Of a stretch of 30,170 nt of DNA, positions 19,132 to 30,170 are shown piece by piece; within the stretch, counting starts at the first letter, position 1, and the number at the start of each line of letters is the position of its first letter. The DNA lies in IMG/VR virus record IMGVR_UViG_2541047794_000005, positions 1-30,170 of that record. The stretch is one strand, 5' to 3'. The notes under the pieces are model-generated. The model was not told where the DNA came from and made no database searches. It was given only the letters and a program-made list of their open reading frames with translations. Origin of the DNA: a virus. Its lineage: Duplodnaviria > Heunggongvirae > Uroviricota > Caudoviricetes. Position numbers and translations under genes: made by a program.

Positions 19132-19836
19132 TCATCTAACAGATACTTTTGCATAAATCAAAGGCCTATCCGAAGAGCCATTTTTACGTACGACCACTCC
19201 ACTGATATCATGGTTTTTACTAAGATCTCGTAATGCGGCGCACAATGCCTTGTTGACATACCCTAGATGATTGTCGTTTTTCGTTACTAATATGGCCAGC
19301 GGATCAACAGTATTGGTATCTTCATTGCGCAATATGACTTCATCACCAATTGATATCTCGTCAAGAGCTAGACGCCCTTCCTTAATCATGTGTCTCGTTC
19401 CGGCGACCTCCATGACATAATCAAAAGGTGGCCGAATAGAAGACAAGTCTGGGACAAAATAAAAACCATCACTAGCCACTTTTCCGCCAGTACAAGCGAG
19501 CAAAACGAAGTCATTCTCTCTAAAATCAGCAGGAAGACGAAACGTCAGCAAGTAATCGGCAAAATCTTCTCTTTTCCTGGAGGGTAACCTTCTTGAAAAG
19601 GTTTGCATAACGTCTTTGCGATGAGTCGTAACTTTTATGTCAAAAGCAGGAAAACCGTGAAAGCCTTTATCCCCAGCTTTAGCAAAATCTTTGCTATCCG
19701 TAAGATAATTAAACTCGTAGCCTTCAGACTCATCTTGAAGAAGTTCACCAACGACATAGCGAGAGCCGCCGTCGGTCGGTTGCCATGTCAGTAAGAGCCT
19801 ACTTGGCATGGGAATTTTTTCTATTAAGATAGTCAT
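19132..19836 (-). CDS. HipA N-terminal-subdomain-like (HipS-like) protein with a C-terminal HIRAN-like domain (234 aa)
   Basis: The N-terminal ~150 aa (LLLTW...VGELL...YEFNY; DFVLLACTGGKVASDGFYFVP) resemble the N-subdomain of E. coli HipA as I recall it. The C-terminal ~85 aa has an HIRAN-like pattern. ATGA overlap with the kinase gene. Confidence 0.55.
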   Translation of the reverse strand: MTILIEKIPMPSRLLLTWQPTDGGSRYVVGELLQDESEGYEFNYLTDSKDFAKAGDKGFHGFPAFDIKVTTHRKDVMQTFSRRLPSRKREDFADYLLTFRLPADFRENDFVLLACTGGKVASDGFYFVPDLSSIRPPFDYVMEVAGTRHMIKEGRLALDEISIGDEVILRNEDTNTVDPLAILVTKNDNHLGYVNKALCAALRDLSKNHDISGVVVRKNGSSDRPLIYAKVSVR

Positions 19837-20744
19837 GAAGTAACACCTTTAATCAGTTCAATACGCATGTTTGTTACACGAACAATCCATGCAGCACGTT
19901 CTCTAGTCAGCGGAACAGGGCAGTTTATTTCCGTCAACTCCGCAAAAGTTGAGTCCCAAAAGTCATGGTTCAAACGAGCCAGTCTTTCAGCTACCCGCTG
20001 TTTTAATTCTTCTTTTTTATCACAAAGTTCTTTGATTAACTCTAAATGACCTAATCTCTGATACTCATCTTTGCCCAGAGTTTTACGCAAATGATGCTTT
20101 CCCCGGCTAACATGCTCCCTGAGTCTATGATCGGTCCAATCAGCAACATGTTCCGGAAAGCGTTCGTAGCATAAGCTCGTACCATTATCGAAAAATGGTG
20201 CAAGCTGACACTCGCTGGTTAAAGGGGAGAAGATAAACCCCCAGTTTTCTTGATGTCTATCTGTATTACCTATTACTGCGTCAAAGAGAGCCATATTCTC
20301 CAACCACTCAACATAGTCAACTTTAAGAGCTTTCGCGATAATCCTCAGCCCTTCAATGGAATGCTTAGCTCCTTTCTCACGATCAAAATTTGGATCTCTT
20401 CGAACAAAGTAATCACCAGCGGGAGCAAATTTCTCATAATCTTTATGATGAAACCACTCAATGAGGGCCCCGCAAAACGTATGCCCCAAATCATTAGTCT
20501 TTAACGAAGGAACTGCTTTGGGGACATTAAAACCAAGCTGCAATCCAATCCTGTAGGCAACGATCTCACACCAAAATTGATCTGGGTATTTTTTAATACT
20601 TCTCTTAAAAAGATACGGCCACGATGCTTTGATACCATGGGGGGCAACATCAGGGGAAATAACCAATGCCTTAGAGCGAGCACCAACAGGATACTGTGCG
20701 AAAACATCTAGCTCAGTCCAATAGGTTACATCTAAGCAATCCAT
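19833..20744 (-). CDS. HipA-like Ser/Thr kinase, core domain only (303 aa, HipT-like)
   Basis: Motif VIGNTDRHQENWGF and a downstream FFDNG correspond to the HipA catalytic loop (GxTDxHxxN) and Mg-binding Asp. It lacks the ~150-aa HipA N-subdomain. RBS AGGA upstream. Confidence 0.8.
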   Translation of the reverse strand: MDCLDVTYWTELDVFAQYPVGARSKALVISPDVAPHGIKASWPYLFKRSIKKYPDQFWCEIVAYRIGLQLGFNVPKAVPSLKTNDLGHTFCGALIEWFHHKDYEKFAPAGDYFVRRDPNFDREKGAKHSIEGLRIIAKALKVDYVEWLENMALFDAVIGNTDRHQENWGFIFSPLTSECQLAPFFDNGTSLCYERFPEHVADWTDHRLREHVSRGKHHLRKTLGKDEYQRLGHLELIKELCDKKEELKQRVAERLARLNHDFWDSTFAELTEINCPVPLTRERAAWIVRVTNMRIELIKGVTS

Positions 20745-20759
20745 AGCTAAGTCCTATAT

Positions 20760-21305
20760 TTATTTTTTATTTAAATTCATATAGATGTGAGAAACCTGTG
20801 CGATCTGAAATAAAACATCATCGAATGCTGTGTGCCTAATGCCAGTGAAATTTTTATCAGCATGAGAAAAAATTCCTTTGCTTTCACCAAGTGCTAAGAT
20901 GGTTCTAACGTCAAGAGTATCTCTGAATGACCATGGGCAATCCAGACCCGCCTGTAACAGGGCATGATGCATGATCGTGCAGTCAAACTCTTTCCCGTTT
21001 CCCCACACTTTTACTCGGCCAGTACGATTATGAAGAATAAATGCCACAAATTCATTCAGAACCTCTAAAAGGTCCTTAGTGCCATCAAAATTTTCGTTTT
21101 TAGCTTCAGTACTTTGATTCATCCACCACTTTACAGTAGAGGGGGCAATGGTTCTGCCTGCTTGTTCATGATCAAGCGAAATAACTTGATAGAAACCCGG
21201 ACCAATCTCGCCAGTCTCCGGCACGAAAAAAGCCGCACCAACTGAAAGGATATAAGCTGTTTTTTCAACATCCAATGTTTCTATATCTAACATTACATGA
21301 TTCAT
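20760..21305 (-). CDS. DEDDh-family 3'-5' exonuclease (DnaQ/RNase T-like), about 181 aa from ATG 21305
   Basis: Exo I motif MLDIETLD near the N-terminus and Exo III motif HTAFDDV near the C-terminus. First gene of the three-gene operon. Confidence 0.75.
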   Translation of the reverse strand: MNHVMLDIETLDVEKTAYILSVGAAFFVPETGEIGPGFYQVISLDHEQAGRTIAPSTVKWWMNQSTEAKNENFDGTKDLLEVLNEFVAFILHNRTGRVKVWGNGKEFDCTIMHHALLQAGLDCPWSFRDTLDVRTILALGESKGIFSHADKNFTGIRHTAFDDVLFQIAQVSHIYMNLNKK

Positions 21306-21801
21306 AAGAAGCAATTGAAACCATTTAGTAAAAATTGAAAGCTATCACCACATTAATGCATGGCATGTACATTTGTGGACGAAAACAAGTATTCTGATTA
21401 TAACCCAAGTGAAAAGCTCAAGTGTCGTAACTTTCACTCGGTTGTTTTCAGTTTCGAAAAACTACTGGGAAGATCCATCTAGTGGTTGTATTCATGAGCG
21501 CGAATTCTCGCCATCAGCTCATCAGTCAACTCAGAAACCCACTGCAGAGCCAGCCCCTTCTCTTCATCACTACACTCACTAGCCGCTACAAGCTTAAGAA
21601 AAAAATCAATGCGCTGGAGCTTCAAAGACTCCAAAAAATAGTCCTGCATCTTTCCTCCTATGACACCACAAGCAATACTGTATGCACAACCACTGTTTAT
21701 ATTTACAGTATATAATAATCTTACTGATGTAAAACGTTTTTTACGTTCATCAGCCTGATATGCCTGGTATTATTAAGAGCACGAATTGTTAACCCACGTG
21801 A

Positions 21802-26681: not shown

Positions 26682-27209
26682 TCACAGCAAACCGAATGAA
26701 GCACCGAGGCCAGTCACGGTATCAACTGCACTCGCCATCGCAGGATTAGCCTGTAAACGGGCCTGCAATGAAACAGCCGCCAGCGCCATCAGTCGTGTTA
26801 CAGAATTAATGCTGCTGATGGCATCACGACGACCGGCACTGGTTTTTACATCGCCAGATACCGCACCTGCAGCAACACGCCCGATCTCTGCGGTTGCACT
26901 CATGACGTAATGTGGCAGTTTCTCTTTTGCCACCTCATTAATCGGTACACATGGCAGACAATGAATCTGTGCCAGAAAACCATCTACCAGCGTTGAATCT
27001 TCAGTCAGATCGGTAAGCAGCCAGATTTCTGGTGCGGTTAATAAATGAGGTTGAGCTGGGTTCAGCTTGTTCCGCAGAATCTGCACATTCATGCCAGCAC
27101 GTTCTGCCAGTTGCACCAGGTTGTGGCGCAATGCGAATGCACGACAGGCTTCATCAAAATGTGGATGTTTGGAAACTTGGTAATCAAACATATTCGACAT
27201 CTCTGACAT
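26682..27209 (-). CDS. 186 CII-like regulatory protein (CP76 family), in the position of P2 B (175 aa)
   Basis: N-terminal [20 protein letters not shown] resembles phage 186 CII-family proteins as I recall them. Second gene of the early (lytic) operon. Confidence 0.55.
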
Positions 27210-27223
27210 AACCCAAAATGGAA

Positions 27224-27445
27224 CTAGTTAATGCTCAAATTGCATTCAGCGAGTGCATCAACAGTCATTGCTGCGATATTGATCATCACCTTTTCTCGCT
27301 TTTTATCCTTACGGAGACGATGGCGAATAAGACGTCCATCAGCCAGCATGTCATTGATGGTGTCGATAGATAAGCCAGTCAGTTCGCTGTATTTCTCAAT
27401 AGAAACAGATGGAACAGCTAAGGTGATTGAAATATGTGGAGTCAT
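27224..27445 (-). CDS. Apl/Cox-like excisionase-regulator (73 aa from ATG 27445; alternative start at 27517)
   Basis: First gene of the early operon, divergent from the repressor. RBS GAGGA precedes ATG 27445. Confidence 0.55.
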   Translation of the reverse strand: MTPHISITLAVPSVSIEKYSELTGLSIDTINDMLADGRLIRHRLRKDKKREKVMINIAAMTVDALAECNLSIN

Positions 27446-27570
27446 GATGCAAGATTCCTCGATTAACATGATGCGTGGTAACTGGTGATTAACACCGTCA
27501 AGTTCACTTTCGCACACATTAATTCTTCATTTGAGAAGTGTCAACTCAATATTACTCAAAGGCGTACTAG

Positions 27571-28449
27571 ATGAATTTCAAAAACGGAGGACAGGCAGTC
27601 ATAACGCGCATGCTTGAAGCGTATGGATTCAAGACGCGGCAAGCCCTATGTGAACAGTTCAATGTATCTGCAAGTACTATGGGAACGCGCTGGATGCGTG
27701 ACGCATTTCCTGCTGACTGGGTAATTCAGTGTGCAATTGAAACAGGAGCATCTATAGAGTGGCTCTCATTCGGAAAAGGCGTGCCATTTCCTAAGAATAC
27801 CGAAGTTCCCGCTAAATTAGAGGAACCAGCATCATTGGTTCAATATGTTCCCAAAGCCACCACCAACGAGAACCCAATTGTGAACCATCCAAATCTGGAT
27901 TCAGGTGGACGTAATGCGATAAACAGGCTAATGGAAGCGTATGGCTTTAAAACAAGACAAGAACTTGCCGACCATTTGAATGTGTCTAAAAGCACAATGG
28001 CGAATAGATACTTGCGAGACACATTCCCAGCTGACTGGATCATAAGATGCTCGTTGGAAACAAGAACTTCTCTTTTATGGTTAGCAACTGGGCGCGGGCA
28101 AAAACTTGGAAGCGAAGAAAGTGAAGCTTTAGAAATTCCTAAAGTAAAACTTATTGACAATCAAATTTTCGATGCTGGTCATTTATTGATAGATAAGTCC
28201 CTGCTTCCTCATTTTAATGATTTACTCGCAATTGAAGACGAACATTGCATAAATATTGCACACATGAATAAAGCTAATGTTGAAGACGGAAGATGGATTG
28301 TTCAATACCAAAATAATTTCAAGTTAAAACAAATTTTTCTATTACCTGGAGGCAATCTTCGAGTAACAGACGATGATTTAACATTTGATTGTGAAAAAGA
28401 AGATATAAAATTAGTTGCCAAAATTTTCTCACAGTACCGTACTATTTAA
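27571..28449 (+). CDS. CI-type immunity repressor (186 CI-like HTH) with a tandemly duplicated DNA-binding domain and an AT-rich C-terminal domain (292 aa)
   Basis: Two copies of MLEAYGFKTRQ-L...NVS-STM--R--RD-FPADW-I-C--ET--S--WL--G-G at residues ~9-70 and ~115-176. Divergent from Apl/Cox across the switch region. Confidence 0.75.
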   Translation: MNFKNGGQAVITRMLEAYGFKTRQALCEQFNVSASTMGTRWMRDAFPADWVIQCAIETGASIEWLSFGKGVPFPKNTEVPAKLEEPASLVQYVPKATTNENPIVNHPNLDSGGRNAINRLMEAYGFKTRQELADHLNVSKSTMANRYLRDTFPADWIIRCSLETRTSLLWLATGRGQKLGSEESEALEIPKVKLIDNQIFDAGHLLIDKSLLPHFNDLLAIEDEHCINIAHMNKANVEDGRWIVQYQNNFKLKQIFLLPGGNLRVTDDDLTFDCEKEDIKLVAKIFSQYRTI

Positions 28450-28464
28450 TCTTGAGGCATAGTA

Positions 28465-29493
28465 ATGGATTTTATAAAAAAACTCGAATTTGGAAATTAT
28501 ACTCTCCGTTTTGGTGATGATGTTTTGCTAGACTATTATGATGAAATTGTTTTCCCCTCTTTTTTGGAGATGGCAAACATCCGCAGAATATCTGACAAAT
28601 CAGAGTTCTTTTTCATTGATACTGAATGCGTCATACTTGACGAAGAAGCAACACCCCCAGTACTCGGAATTAAAGGTCGGATTATTAAGAATACATTATT
28701 AACCAGAGAACAAGTATTTGATGGTGCTGATTTGGTTGAAGATCATCAAGAGCTTGAAACAGCCCCGAGCTCTTTCTTTCTTCTAATATTAAACACTCAC
28801 AGATTAATTCTTTGCAAGGAAGTTAGTGGTGCTCCCACAATTCAAAACTTTCAGTCAACAAGTCAGTGTTTCTTAAACATAGAATATGAAAAATACATAT
28901 CTCATTTATACGAAACCGCACAAGAAGAACGCAAAGAAAACCCTGACTTACCTCGAGTCACTAAAAAAAGCTTACGGAACGAAATCAAACGCCCGAAGCT
29001 AAGAATAACGCCGTTAACTGACAAACAAAGCCTAGAGCAATTTATTGATAATTTTAATAAAATCCAAAATGTCTCAGTAAAACTTCTCCCTACAAATCAA
29101 GAAGAAATTGATAACGACGAATTTTGGGAGTCACTTGAAAGTGCCGGAGACGAAATGGGAAGTATTTCTACATCTATTCGCTTTTCAAACACCGATTCAG
29201 GCTTGAATCATGGTGCTGTTTTAGAACAACTCACATCAGCAACCAGATTGGCTAATTCAGGAATAAATATTAAAGGATATGATGACAATGGTGATATAAT
29301 CAAAGGTAGCAATGATGACTTTGTTTTGTTAAGTGAGATGAATGAATTATCAAAGGATACGGTAGTAGCTGCAAATGAAAGTTATGAGCGGTATGAAAAT
29401 CTTGTAGAAGAAGGTAAGATATCTCTACCCCGTTCTCTTTCACAAAAGACGATTAGAATTATTAGCAATATATATGAAAGGTTTGGTCGATGA
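28465..29493 (+). CDS. Hypothetical soluble protein (342 aa), AT-rich, immediately downstream of the repressor
   Basis: RBS GAGG 8 nt upstream of ATG 28465, which is 15 bp after the repressor stop. No family recognised. Confidence 0.7.
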   Translation: MDFIKKLEFGNYTLRFGDDVLLDYYDEIVFPSFLEMANIRRISDKSEFFFIDTECVILDEEATPPVLGIKGRIIKNTLLTREQVFDGADLVEDHQELETAPSSFFLLILNTHRLILCKEVSGAPTIQNFQSTSQCFLNIEYEKYISHLYETAQEERKENPDLPRVTKKSLRNEIKRPKLRITPLTDKQSLEQFIDNFNKIQNVSVKLLPTNQEEIDNDEFWESLESAGDEMGSISTSIRFSNTDSGLNHGAVLEQLTSATRLANSGINIKGYDDNGDIIKGSNDDFVLLSEMNELSKDTVVAANESYERYENLVEEGKISLPRSLSQKTIRIISNIYERFGR

Positions 29494-30170
29494 TAAATAA
29501 AATAGATGCTAAAGAAATAACCAAAGAGAAAAACCTTTGGGATGTTTACTTGCTCTGCAAACGGATTACTATTAGTACATTCCATATTTGCATTTTGCTC
29601 ACAGCATCTATTTTTTTATTAACAAACTCTTTTTTTATTGAGAAGGATATGTCTCATTTAGTATCTGACATTAGAAACTGGGCTTTGATTGGTTTTAACT
29701 TTGCAGTGACAACCTTAGGTTTTCTCATTGCTGGTTTCACAATATTTGCAACACTATCCAAACCCGAGATGTTTCTTCAGATGATGTCAATACAACATAA
29801 AAAAACACAGATGCCCACGTTAAAATATAACTTTATGGCATTTATGAAAGTTTTCATCTCATTTATTACGTTTACTTTCATTTATCTAATAATAATTCTC
29901 TTTTGTCAAAAAGATGGAATAATTGGCAATATAATTGATTTATTTCCATATTCAAAATCGATAAAAGAATTAATTATTAAATTTGGATACTGTGTTATAG
30001 GGACTAGCCTTATTTACTTAGTGTTAGTAGTAAAGACATTTATTTTTAATATCTACGCTATCATAATGAATAATATTCGTTGGGAGTTATACATTAAAAG
30101 AAAAGAACAAAGACTTTCCAGTAACAAAGAGACAATCAATAAAAACATAGATGTAACTAAAATGCATTAA
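29490..30170 (+). CDS. Hypothetical polytopic membrane protein (226 aa, about 4 transmembrane helices), AT-rich
   Basis: ATGA overlap with the upstream gene. Four long hydrophobic segments. Stop TAA is the last codon of the window. Confidence 0.7.
   Translation: MINKIDAKEITKEKNLWDVYLLCKRITISTFHICILLTASIFLLTNSFFIEKDMSHLVSDIRNWALIGFNFAVTTLGFLIAGFTIFATLSKPEMFLQMMSIQHKKTQMPTLKYNFMAFMKVFISFITFTFIYLIIILFCQKDGIIGNIIDLFPYSKSIKELIIKFGYCVIGTSLIYLVLVVKTFIFNIYAIIMNNIRWELYIKRKEQRLSSNKETINKNIDVTKMH

Follow-up and report, generated by a model that had tools for sequence, protein, structure and literature searches.

A 186-type CI repressor with two helix-turn-helix heads of apparently different ancestry in an Escherichia coli prophage

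Introduction

The CI repressor of phage 186 is among the best-studied alternatives to the lambda switch. Repressors of this type bind operators at pR and, some 300 bp away, the distal sites FL and FR, and their induction depends on a LexA-controlled antirepressor of the Tum type, not on self-cleavage. The protein forms dimers and a 14-mer wheel which wraps and loops DNA (PMC3675496). According to Shearwin et al. (2002), as that work is cited in PMC3675496, it recognises two distinct kinds of sequence with one helix-turn-helix (HTH) domain. For phage PSP3, the extra length of CI has been noted and was ascribed to a longer C-terminal domain (Nilsson et al. 2011, PMC3448106).

Here we describe a 186-type CI of 292 aa. 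It is encoded in the window (the whole stretch of 30,170 nucleotides that was analysed), which represents a P2/186-like prophage with genes for the replication protein gpA, a Dam methylase, terminase and portal. The prophage adjoins rcdA/ybjJ in complete E. coli genomes, where the genes follow each other in the order cI, two unnamed genes and int. The 292-aa CI is the immunity repressor of this 186-like (Peduoviridae) E. coli prophage, integrated beside rcdA/ybjJ.

Domain architecture of the repressor

The cI gene is an open reading frame at exactly 27571-28449 on the plus strand, and its 292-aa product is named 'phage repressor protein CI' in RefSeq. From the N-terminus, the protein consists of a first HTH domain (R1), a linker, a second HTH domain (R2) and a 186-type C-terminal domain. 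That the repressor contains two HTH repeats was the central point of the original prediction, and the Pfam search agrees with it: Phage_CI_repr (PF07022) is matched in two stretches with an E-value of 4e-59, the best stretch being residues 116-177. The ungapped alignment of residues 2-70 with residues 108-176 has a score of 223 against 25 +/- 3.9 for 500 shuffles, and 38 of 69 residues are identical (55%). R1 (aa 2-70; 27574-27780, plus strand) carries the recognition helix ASTMGTRWM (aa 34-42), and R2 (aa 108-176; 27892-28098, plus strand) carries KSTMANRYL (aa 140-148), so that the two helices differ at five of nine positions. The linker between them (aa 71-107; 27781-27891, plus strand) is predicted to be disordered and is little conserved. 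The C-terminal (oligomerisation) domain (28099-28446, plus strand) matches Phage_CI_C (PF16452) at residues 188-285 with an E-value of 2e-16, and no Pfam match to Peptidase_S24 was found. The structure of 186 CI, 2fjr, aligns with residues 115-290, that is, with R2 and the C-terminal domain (E 1e-23). The comparison of layouts called for by the original prediction thus sets 192 aa and one HTH in 186 CI against 292 aa and two HTHs here.

A monomer model was built with AlphaFold2 on 44 two-HTH homologues. R1 and R2 are each predicted as a five-helix bundle, with pLDDT of 81-90 for R1 and 81-89 for R2, and residues 75-109 fall below 50, as is expected for a disordered linker. The C-terminal domain is beta-rich and confidently modelled, while the arrangement of the domains relative to each other carries no confidence (pTM 0.40). 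In a Foldseek comparison the C-terminal domain superimposes on 2fkd_A with a TM-score of 0.91 and an rmsd of 1.5 Å over 110 residues. By analogy with 186 CI, the 292-aa CI probably still oligomerises through this domain. Taken as a whole, the 292-aa chain has two intact HTH domains with a flexible linker of about 35 residues between them.

Comparison of the gene with those of two sister prophages gave a dN/dS of 0.02-0.07 in R1 and of about 0.1 in R2. The linker has a higher value, 0.33-0.6, and shares 46-49% of its amino acids with the sister proteins. Among the 44 two-HTH proteins, both repeats contain invariant residues and the linker is variable. Judging from this purifying selection (dN/dS 0.02-0.10) and from the invariant residues, both heads are functional. 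It had been left to an HMM search to decide whether both copies are genuine HTH domains; together with the predicted folds (pLDDT 81-90) and the selection on both repeats, the search places the two of them among bona fide HTHs.

Origin of the two heads

At the DNA level R1 and R2 are 58% identical, the third codon positions are only 33% identical, and pS is 0.80, which is saturated. The repeats are therefore as diverged in their DNA as had been supposed, but the old duplication which was read from this divergence did not hold, since R1 and R2 come from different HTH clades. This became clear when the HTH domains from the 120 closest protein clusters, 46 of which carry two HTH domains, were themselves clustered. 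R2 of 40 of the 46 two-HTH proteins groups with 19 single-HTH repressors, and its recognition helix is nearly invariant, whereas the R1 position is occupied by at least four HTH clades. In the small lineage containing the 292-aa CI, R1 falls inside a clade of 206-aa single-HTH repressors; it is 82-89% identical to the N-terminal domain of these proteins (P0054/P0056), with 82% across residues 1-77. R2 together with the C-terminal domain aligns without a gap with an entire 195-aa single-HTH repressor at 81% identity, and the range for the 195-198-aa type (P0004/P0007) is 75-81%, or 72-76% for the HTH alone.

Since R1 and R2 lie in different clades, each nearer to single-HTH repressors than to the other repeat, the pair was united by recombination. 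On the evidence of these sequence comparisons, the two HTH copies were not duplicated within the 292-aa CI gene, and the heads have different ancestry. The linker ends in NENPIVNHPNLDSGG, which is homologous to KYPNEIKINPNKGG, the N-terminus of the R2-type single-HTH repressors. The R2 unit thus has the appearance of a whole single-HTH gene to which an extra front head has been added.

The presence of two different heads on one chain raises three questions. First, how would a 186-type wheel accommodate the extra heads? Second, are the two recognition modes divided between R1 and R2? Third, does head swapping give rise to new or one-sided immunity types among competing prophages of E. coli, Klebsiella and Salmonella? 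A two-HTH CI offers experiments a good way into the 186-type switch.

Distribution of two-HTH repressors

A profile search of 1.84 billion representative proteins returned 304 family members, and the best 150 of these 304 include about 26 two-HTH and 57 full-length single-HTH proteins. Among the same best 150, the two-HTH proteins can be sorted into four groups or more. One unites the ordinary enterobacterial type with the 292-aa type; beside it stand the PSP3 group, P0198/P0219/P0231, and P0250/P0263, in which the two HTH copies are still 71% identical. It follows from the existence of at least four groups that the architecture arose more than once. In the first two of them, R2 is near single-HTH repressors and R1 is more divergent. 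Sequenced phages with a two-HTH CI are PSP3, whose 286-aa protein is matched by PF07022 in two stretches, and the Klebsiella phages 4LV2017 and ST437-OXA245phi4.2.

The identical 292-aa protein occurs in 69 database entries. Thirteen of 5,426 complete E. coli genomes carry the region at a nucleotide identity of at least 99.7%, and 18 more share its first 63% only; a megablast comparison of the region with deposited phages gave no match. Databases label two-HTH CI proteins plainly 'repressor protein CI', and a full-text literature search found no description of a two-HTH 186-type CI. The class is thus common in databases and appears to be uncharacterised.

A recombination breakpoint inside cI

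Within the gene, R1 has a G+C content of 0.478, the linker of 0.45 and R2 of 0.44, and the C-terminal domain then has 0.31, with a GC3 of 0.198. Outside cI it is 0.325 downstream (28450-30170) and 0.519 in the remaining window. It had been noticed from the sequence that G+C falls from the first repeat through the second into the C-terminal domain and the downstream gene. The fall into the C-terminal domain and beyond is real, but the gradual slide through the repeats is not; the values stay rather flat as far as R2 (0.44) before they drop to 0.31, which makes the change a step at the boundary between R2 and the C-terminal domain.

The joins were located by sliding nucleotide identity against three loci: L002, a sister E. 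coli prophage; L004, a Salmonella locus with a single-HTH cI; and L008, a Klebsiella aerogenes prophage, also with a single-HTH cI. The identity to L002 is 88-98% at 27200-27770, 62-70% in the linker and 82-93% in R2, and it is about 50% from about 28090 on, so that the sister prophage shares the upstream part only. The reverse is seen with the other two loci. L004 is 63-77% identical in R2 and 87-95% in the C-terminal domain at the nucleotide level, and in L008 an identity of 62-67% in R2 gives way to about 90% between 28072 and about 30100 and to about 80% in int. As the identity to L002 falls where that to L004 and L008 rises, a recombination breakpoint is placed at the junction of R2 and the C-terminal domain, at about 28072-28100, the same place as the G+C step. 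The suggestion that cI is a mosaic gene is thereby confirmed, its internal compositional break matching a mapped breakpoint. Synonymous divergence from L002 is 0.17 in R1, 1.08 in the linker and 0.52 in R2, and these unequal values point to further exchange within the N-terminal part.

The cI gene is composed of three exchangeable modules: (a) the operator region with R1, (b) R2, and (c) the C-terminal domain with the two genes that follow. It is the swapping in of module (c) at the R2/C-terminal-domain junction that gives rise to the G+C step. The two genes, coding for proteins of 342 aa and then 226 aa, form a low-G+C cassette at 28465-30170 on the plus strand, between cI and int. Their products are 95% and 91% identical to K. 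aerogenes counterparts, which lie there behind a single-HTH cI, and the C-terminal domain and the cassette move together as a single unit. The 226-aa protein has four hydrophobic segments, and neither protein has a match in Pfam, PHROG, NCBIfam or PADLOC.

Between cI and int, related phages have different contents. In the sister prophage the slot holds the PADLOC candidate HEC-01 (AriA-like ATPase and DUF4276), a candidate defence system; in PSP3 it holds a DUF2511 gene, and in 186 it is empty. The breakpoint gives a concrete view of the exchange at this slot, in which the cargo is swapped along with the C-terminal domain of the repressor and the conserved HTH-coding DNA acts as one recombination anchor.

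Organisation of the switch region

Opposite to cI lie an apl/cox-like gene for an excisionase and lytic repressor of 73 aa (27224-27445, minus strand; a RefSeq CDS matching PHROG 575 'Cox-like excisionase and repressor', E 4e-28) and the gene for a cII lysogeny activator of the CP76 family (26682-27191, minus strand; a RefSeq CDS of 169 aa matching PF06892 with E 4e-42 and PHROG 101). As no site in 27150-27700 reached the threshold of a consensus scan for promoters and terminators, the annotated 186 record was used to place both promoters by homology. The putative lytic promoter pR (27516-27544, minus strand) has the -35 element TTGACA (27544-27539), a 17-nt spacer and the -10 element TAATGT (27521-27516), a layout equal to that of the annotated 186 pR; the -35 element, TGTCAA on the plus strand, is conserved in most related loci. 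Facing it, the putative lysogenic promoter pL (27427-27455, plus strand), with TTGAAA as -35 and CAAGAT as -10, was placed by its homology, in position and sequence, to the annotated 186 pL at the start of apl, and its sequence ATTGAAAT is conserved across related loci. A first guess for pL, TTAACA ... TGATTA (27463-27491), was dropped after comparison with 186. As judged from the gene families and from the homology of the putative promoters, the switch thus has cI opposite apl-cII, with pR and pL face-to-face.

Candidate operators

The candidate main operator is the inverted repeat TTCTTCATTTGAGAAG at 27523-27538, which lies inside the spacer of the putative pR and occurs once in the window. 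At the matching position the pR spacer of 186 has the inverted repeat TCTCTCAATTGGGAGA, and that of L005, a phage with an R1-like single HTH, has CTTTCCATTTGGAAAG, which resembles the window's operator. A second two-HTH type, L033, was also compared with single-HTH phages, and its switch is closest to that of L051 (66%). Of the two most R1-like single-HTH phages in this comparison, L051 has an R1-like HTH at 76% and the switch at 66%, and L063 has the HTH at 79% and the switch at 44%. From the position of the L005 operator and the likeness of the L033 and L051 switches, R1 and the pR operators seem to travel together. In the ordinary two-HTH phages the pR operators are unlike those of the R2-type single-HTH phages, with which the remaining switch is shared.

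In the R2-type single-HTH phages the palindrome GTWCCCAAWTGGGWAC lies a short way downstream of the pR -10 element, at -45 relative to the start of cI, and a half-degenerate copy lies at +14. This operator palindrome is absent from the window's pR. When up to four mismatches are allowed, the 30 kb contain five matches to it where chance would give about eight, so that the total does not exceed chance. What stands out is the clustering alone: three matches fall inside the 680-bp immunity region, at 27209, at 27552 (beside the pR -35 element) and at 27870. In the ordinary two-HTH Klebsiella phage 4LV2017, R2-type matches show no clustering.

The match at 27870-27885, GAACCCAATTGTGAAC, is the sole one in 30 kb at three or fewer mismatches to the R2-type single-HTH operator, and we regard it as a candidate R2 site. 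It is located within cI, where the R2 unit has its 5' end, and is the positional equivalent of 186 FL, which lies at +269 where the window's candidate lies at +299. The sister prophages keep the palindrome in more symmetric forms, GAACCCTATTGGGAAC and GTCCCCAATTGGGAAC. The same 16 nucleotides code for a semi-conserved N-P-I-G/V-N motif, and they lie in sequence homologous to the 5' ends of single-HTH cI genes, so the palindrome could be a relic or constrained by the protein. The match at 27209-27224, TAACCCAAAATGGAAC, abuts the apl stop codon, has four mismatches to the R2-type palindrome and is the candidate positional equivalent of 186 FR, which likewise lies at the apl stop. This FR-like element is kept in almost all related loci, whatever the type of repressor, and is therefore not specific to the 292-aa CI.

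Both the window's pR operator and the R2-type palindromes are near-symmetric, with halves of a single type, which suits the two identical heads of a dimer. The original prediction had proposed that a single chain with two DNA-binding domains could read an operator pair as a monomer. Such a mechanism is unsupported, given that the protein retains its oligomerisation domain and that its candidate sites show symmetry.

Several other searches for operators were made. Weight-matrix motif refinement in three locus groups returned mostly sequence conserved by descent and was set aside as evidence. A strict palindrome scan recovered FL and FR of 186 and the single-HTH operators, and was too strict for the window. 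The candidate relatives were not clearly told apart by global identity over the 110 bp that precede cI (0.53 vs 0.45-0.53). The pattern AACCCAANNNNGAAC matches the two flanking sites only; as it had been derived from those very sites, it is circular and was given zero weight.

A possible division of DNA reading between R1 and R2

What would each head read? The likeness of operators that goes with R1, the R2-type sites at the places of FL and FR, and the reported dual recognition by 186 CI together suggest that R1 acts at pR and R2 at the flanks. We put this assignment, made by position and similarity, at somewhat short of an even chance. Pairs of R1 heads would read the near-symmetric operator in the pR spacer, and R1 would set the phage's own immunity type and move together with its operators. 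R2, the copy beside the C-terminal domain which has stayed close to the single-HTH repressors, would in pairs read CCCAATTGGG-type palindromes about 320-350 bp either side of pR, at the FL and FR positions. The dual recognition reported for the single HTH of 186 CI would in this way be shared out, with one dedicated head for each kind of sequence. Only two to three recognition-helix positions separate the repeats in most two-HTH proteins, so the specificities of R1 and R2 may overlap.

A bolder version, to which we give a rather low probability, is that this is a natural split of 186 dual recognition in which R1 and its operators form a swappable immunity cassette through which the phage evades repression by resident relatives, and R2 binds palindromes of the ancestral type, looping the phage's own switch in the manner of FL and FR in 186 and shutting down incoming single-HTH phages. 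If true, it would mean one-way immunity and a wheel of 28 heads with two specificities.

The ability to shut down incoming phages might also be the main use of R2. It is conceivable, though we doubt it, that R1 controls the phage's own pR and R2 is kept mainly against incoming R2-type single-HTH phages with GTACCCAAATGGGAAC pR operators; such phages would then fail to repress the prophage yet be excluded by it, and this broadened immunity can coexist with the split of R1 at pR and R2 at the flanks. It would fit with the identity of 72-76% between the R2 HTH and the single-HTH repressors that have such palindromic operators (75-81% when the C-terminal domain is included), with an R2 recognition helix that hardly varies while the R1 slot is filled by at least four HTH clades, and with the ordinary two-HTH phages, which share the switch backbone of the R2-type single-HTH phages but differ in the pR operators. 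However, it leaves unexplained why R2-type palindromes lie inside the window's own immunity region, and that defence alone would preserve a domain over many lineages, though possible, is unproven.

R1 and R2 of one chain might instead sit on the two halves of an asymmetric operator, with one chain acting as a dimer. The flexible linker, of 35-45 residues, would be long enough, and the repeated pR elements of the ordinary two-HTH phages are asymmetric and in the same orientation, e.g. TTCACAAAACGGAGAA. Engineered single-chain 434 repressors also work. The double TetR protein Mce3R binds a non-palindromic site in just this manner (PMC11667970). Against this stand the 186-type C-terminal domain, which is kept with high structural similarity (TM 0.91), and the window's pR operator and R2-type palindromes, each near-symmetric with like halves; moreover, the motif refinement which hinted at asymmetry was confounded by shared ancestry. 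Such an intramolecular pseudo-dimer is therefore unlikely here.

It is more improbable that only one head binds DNA, the other being a regulatory module, e.g. a surface that serves a Tum-like antirepressor or Apl as docking site or decoy. Induction in 186-like phages proceeds via an antirepressor that binds CI (PMC3121763), and a second HTH-like surface could tune it. Nevertheless, both heads retain the family's recognition-helix residues S-x-S-T-x-x-x-R-Y/W, R1 and R2 are under equally strong purifying selection, and both remain close to the HTHs of single-HTH repressors (82-89% identical for R1 and 72-76% for R2, or 75-81% for R2 with the C-terminal domain). Finally, the idea that the gene is an artefact of annotation or assembly, or a fused pseudogene in decay, has nothing in its favour but the unusual length and is refuted by the presence of the same protein in 69 database entries and, at 99.7% nucleotide identity or more, in 13 complete E. 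coli genomes, by the same architecture in 46 related clusters and in phage PSP3, and by an intact frame under purifying selection.

Comparison with known systems

Phage 186 is among the closest described systems. Its CI of 192 aa (PDB 2FJR, 2FKD) shares the Pfam domains and the C-terminal fold of the 292-aa CI, and its switch, with pR and pL face to face, apl and cII opposite and an operator in the pR spacer, has the layout of the window, where candidate flanking sites are found at positions equivalent to FL and FR. There are three differences. 186 CI has one HTH (the usual 186 layout is about 190-206 aa), whereas the 292-aa CI has two and a disordered linker of about 35 residues; the operator sequences differ; and int directly follows cI in 186, whereas the cargo cassette lies between them in the window.

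The CI proteins of PSP3, 4LV2017 and ST437-OXA245phi4.2 have, as the 292-aa CI has, two HTHs and the CI C-terminal domain, but their HTHs belong to different clades, and PSP3 CI is only about 31% identical to the ordinary two-HTH type. The latter differs further by an 18-residue N-terminal extension, with a start codon that overlaps the pR -35 element. The single-HTH type of 195-198 aa can carry the cassette of the 342-aa and 226-aa proteins downstream, as in the window, but offers one head per chain. In the R2-type single-HTH phages, pR itself is where the palindromic operators are located (-45 and +14 relative to the cI start codon). The window's best match to them is inside cI.

Outside the 186 family, Mce3R of M. 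tuberculosis, a double TetR protein (PMC11667970), resembles the 292-aa CI in having two DNA-binding modules of one family in each polypeptide. In Mce3R and in single-chain 434 repressors, the doubling replaces dimerisation and one asymmetric or pseudo-symmetric site is filled. In contrast, the 292-aa CI has kept a separate oligomerisation domain, and its heads appear to have separate symmetric candidate targets.

Recombination within the cI gene

When the coding sequence at 27571-28098 of the window was compared with that of L002, a sister E. coli prophage, the synonymous divergence was 0.17 in R1 (the first HTH domain), 1.08 in the linker and 0.52 in R2 (the second HTH domain). Divergence is thus threefold to sixfold unequal across the three segments within a single pair of sister prophages, which implies that additional recombination junctions flank the linker on both sides. 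Separate groups of two-HTH CI proteins, represented by P0250, P0263, P0198, P0219 and P0231, carry HTH copies that are still 50-72% identical to each other, and these identities suggest that more recent tandem duplications may have arisen independently in other lineages.

Cargo genes

A low-G+C cassette of two genes (28465-30170, G+C 0.32) lies between cI and int. Its first gene is a 342-aa ORF (28465-29493), and the second is a 226-aa ORF (29490-30170) whose product contains four long hydrophobic stretches; searches of Pfam, PHROGs, NCBIfam and PADLOC gave no match for either protein. Since the equivalent slot of the sister prophage carries the PADLOC candidate HEC-01, consisting of an AriA-like ATPase and DUF4276, the cassette is a candidate anti-phage system of an undescribed kind. 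A further cargo block is located on the minus strand at 19132-21314 and encodes a HIRAN-domain protein (19132-19836), a HipA-like kinase (19833-20744) and an Rv2179c-like 3'-5' exonuclease (20760-21314). The kinase and the HIRAN-domain protein correspond to the two components of PDC-M03, a PADLOC candidate system.

The cI start and the apl stop codon

The start of cI was also examined in ordinary two-HTH prophages, namely L003, L021-L032 and related loci. The cI start codon overlaps the -35 hexamer of the putative lytic promoter pR on the opposite strand (ATGTCAAC) in the majority of two-HTH phages and in those with a lone R2-type HTH. CI has an N-terminal extension of 11-18 residues (MSTxK...) in those phages, and the DNA encoding it also bears operator-like repeats. 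Unlike the ordinary two-HTH prophages, the window lineage is without this extension, with an in-frame TAG directly 5' of its ATG.

The element (A/T)TCCCAAAATGGAAC (27210-27224) abuts the stop codon of the apl/cox-like gene, and occupies the equivalent position in some 20 related loci, whose prophages carry widely differing repressors. A repressor-specific operator does not explain such conservation across immunity types. The position of the element is that of FR, a flanking CI site of phage 186.
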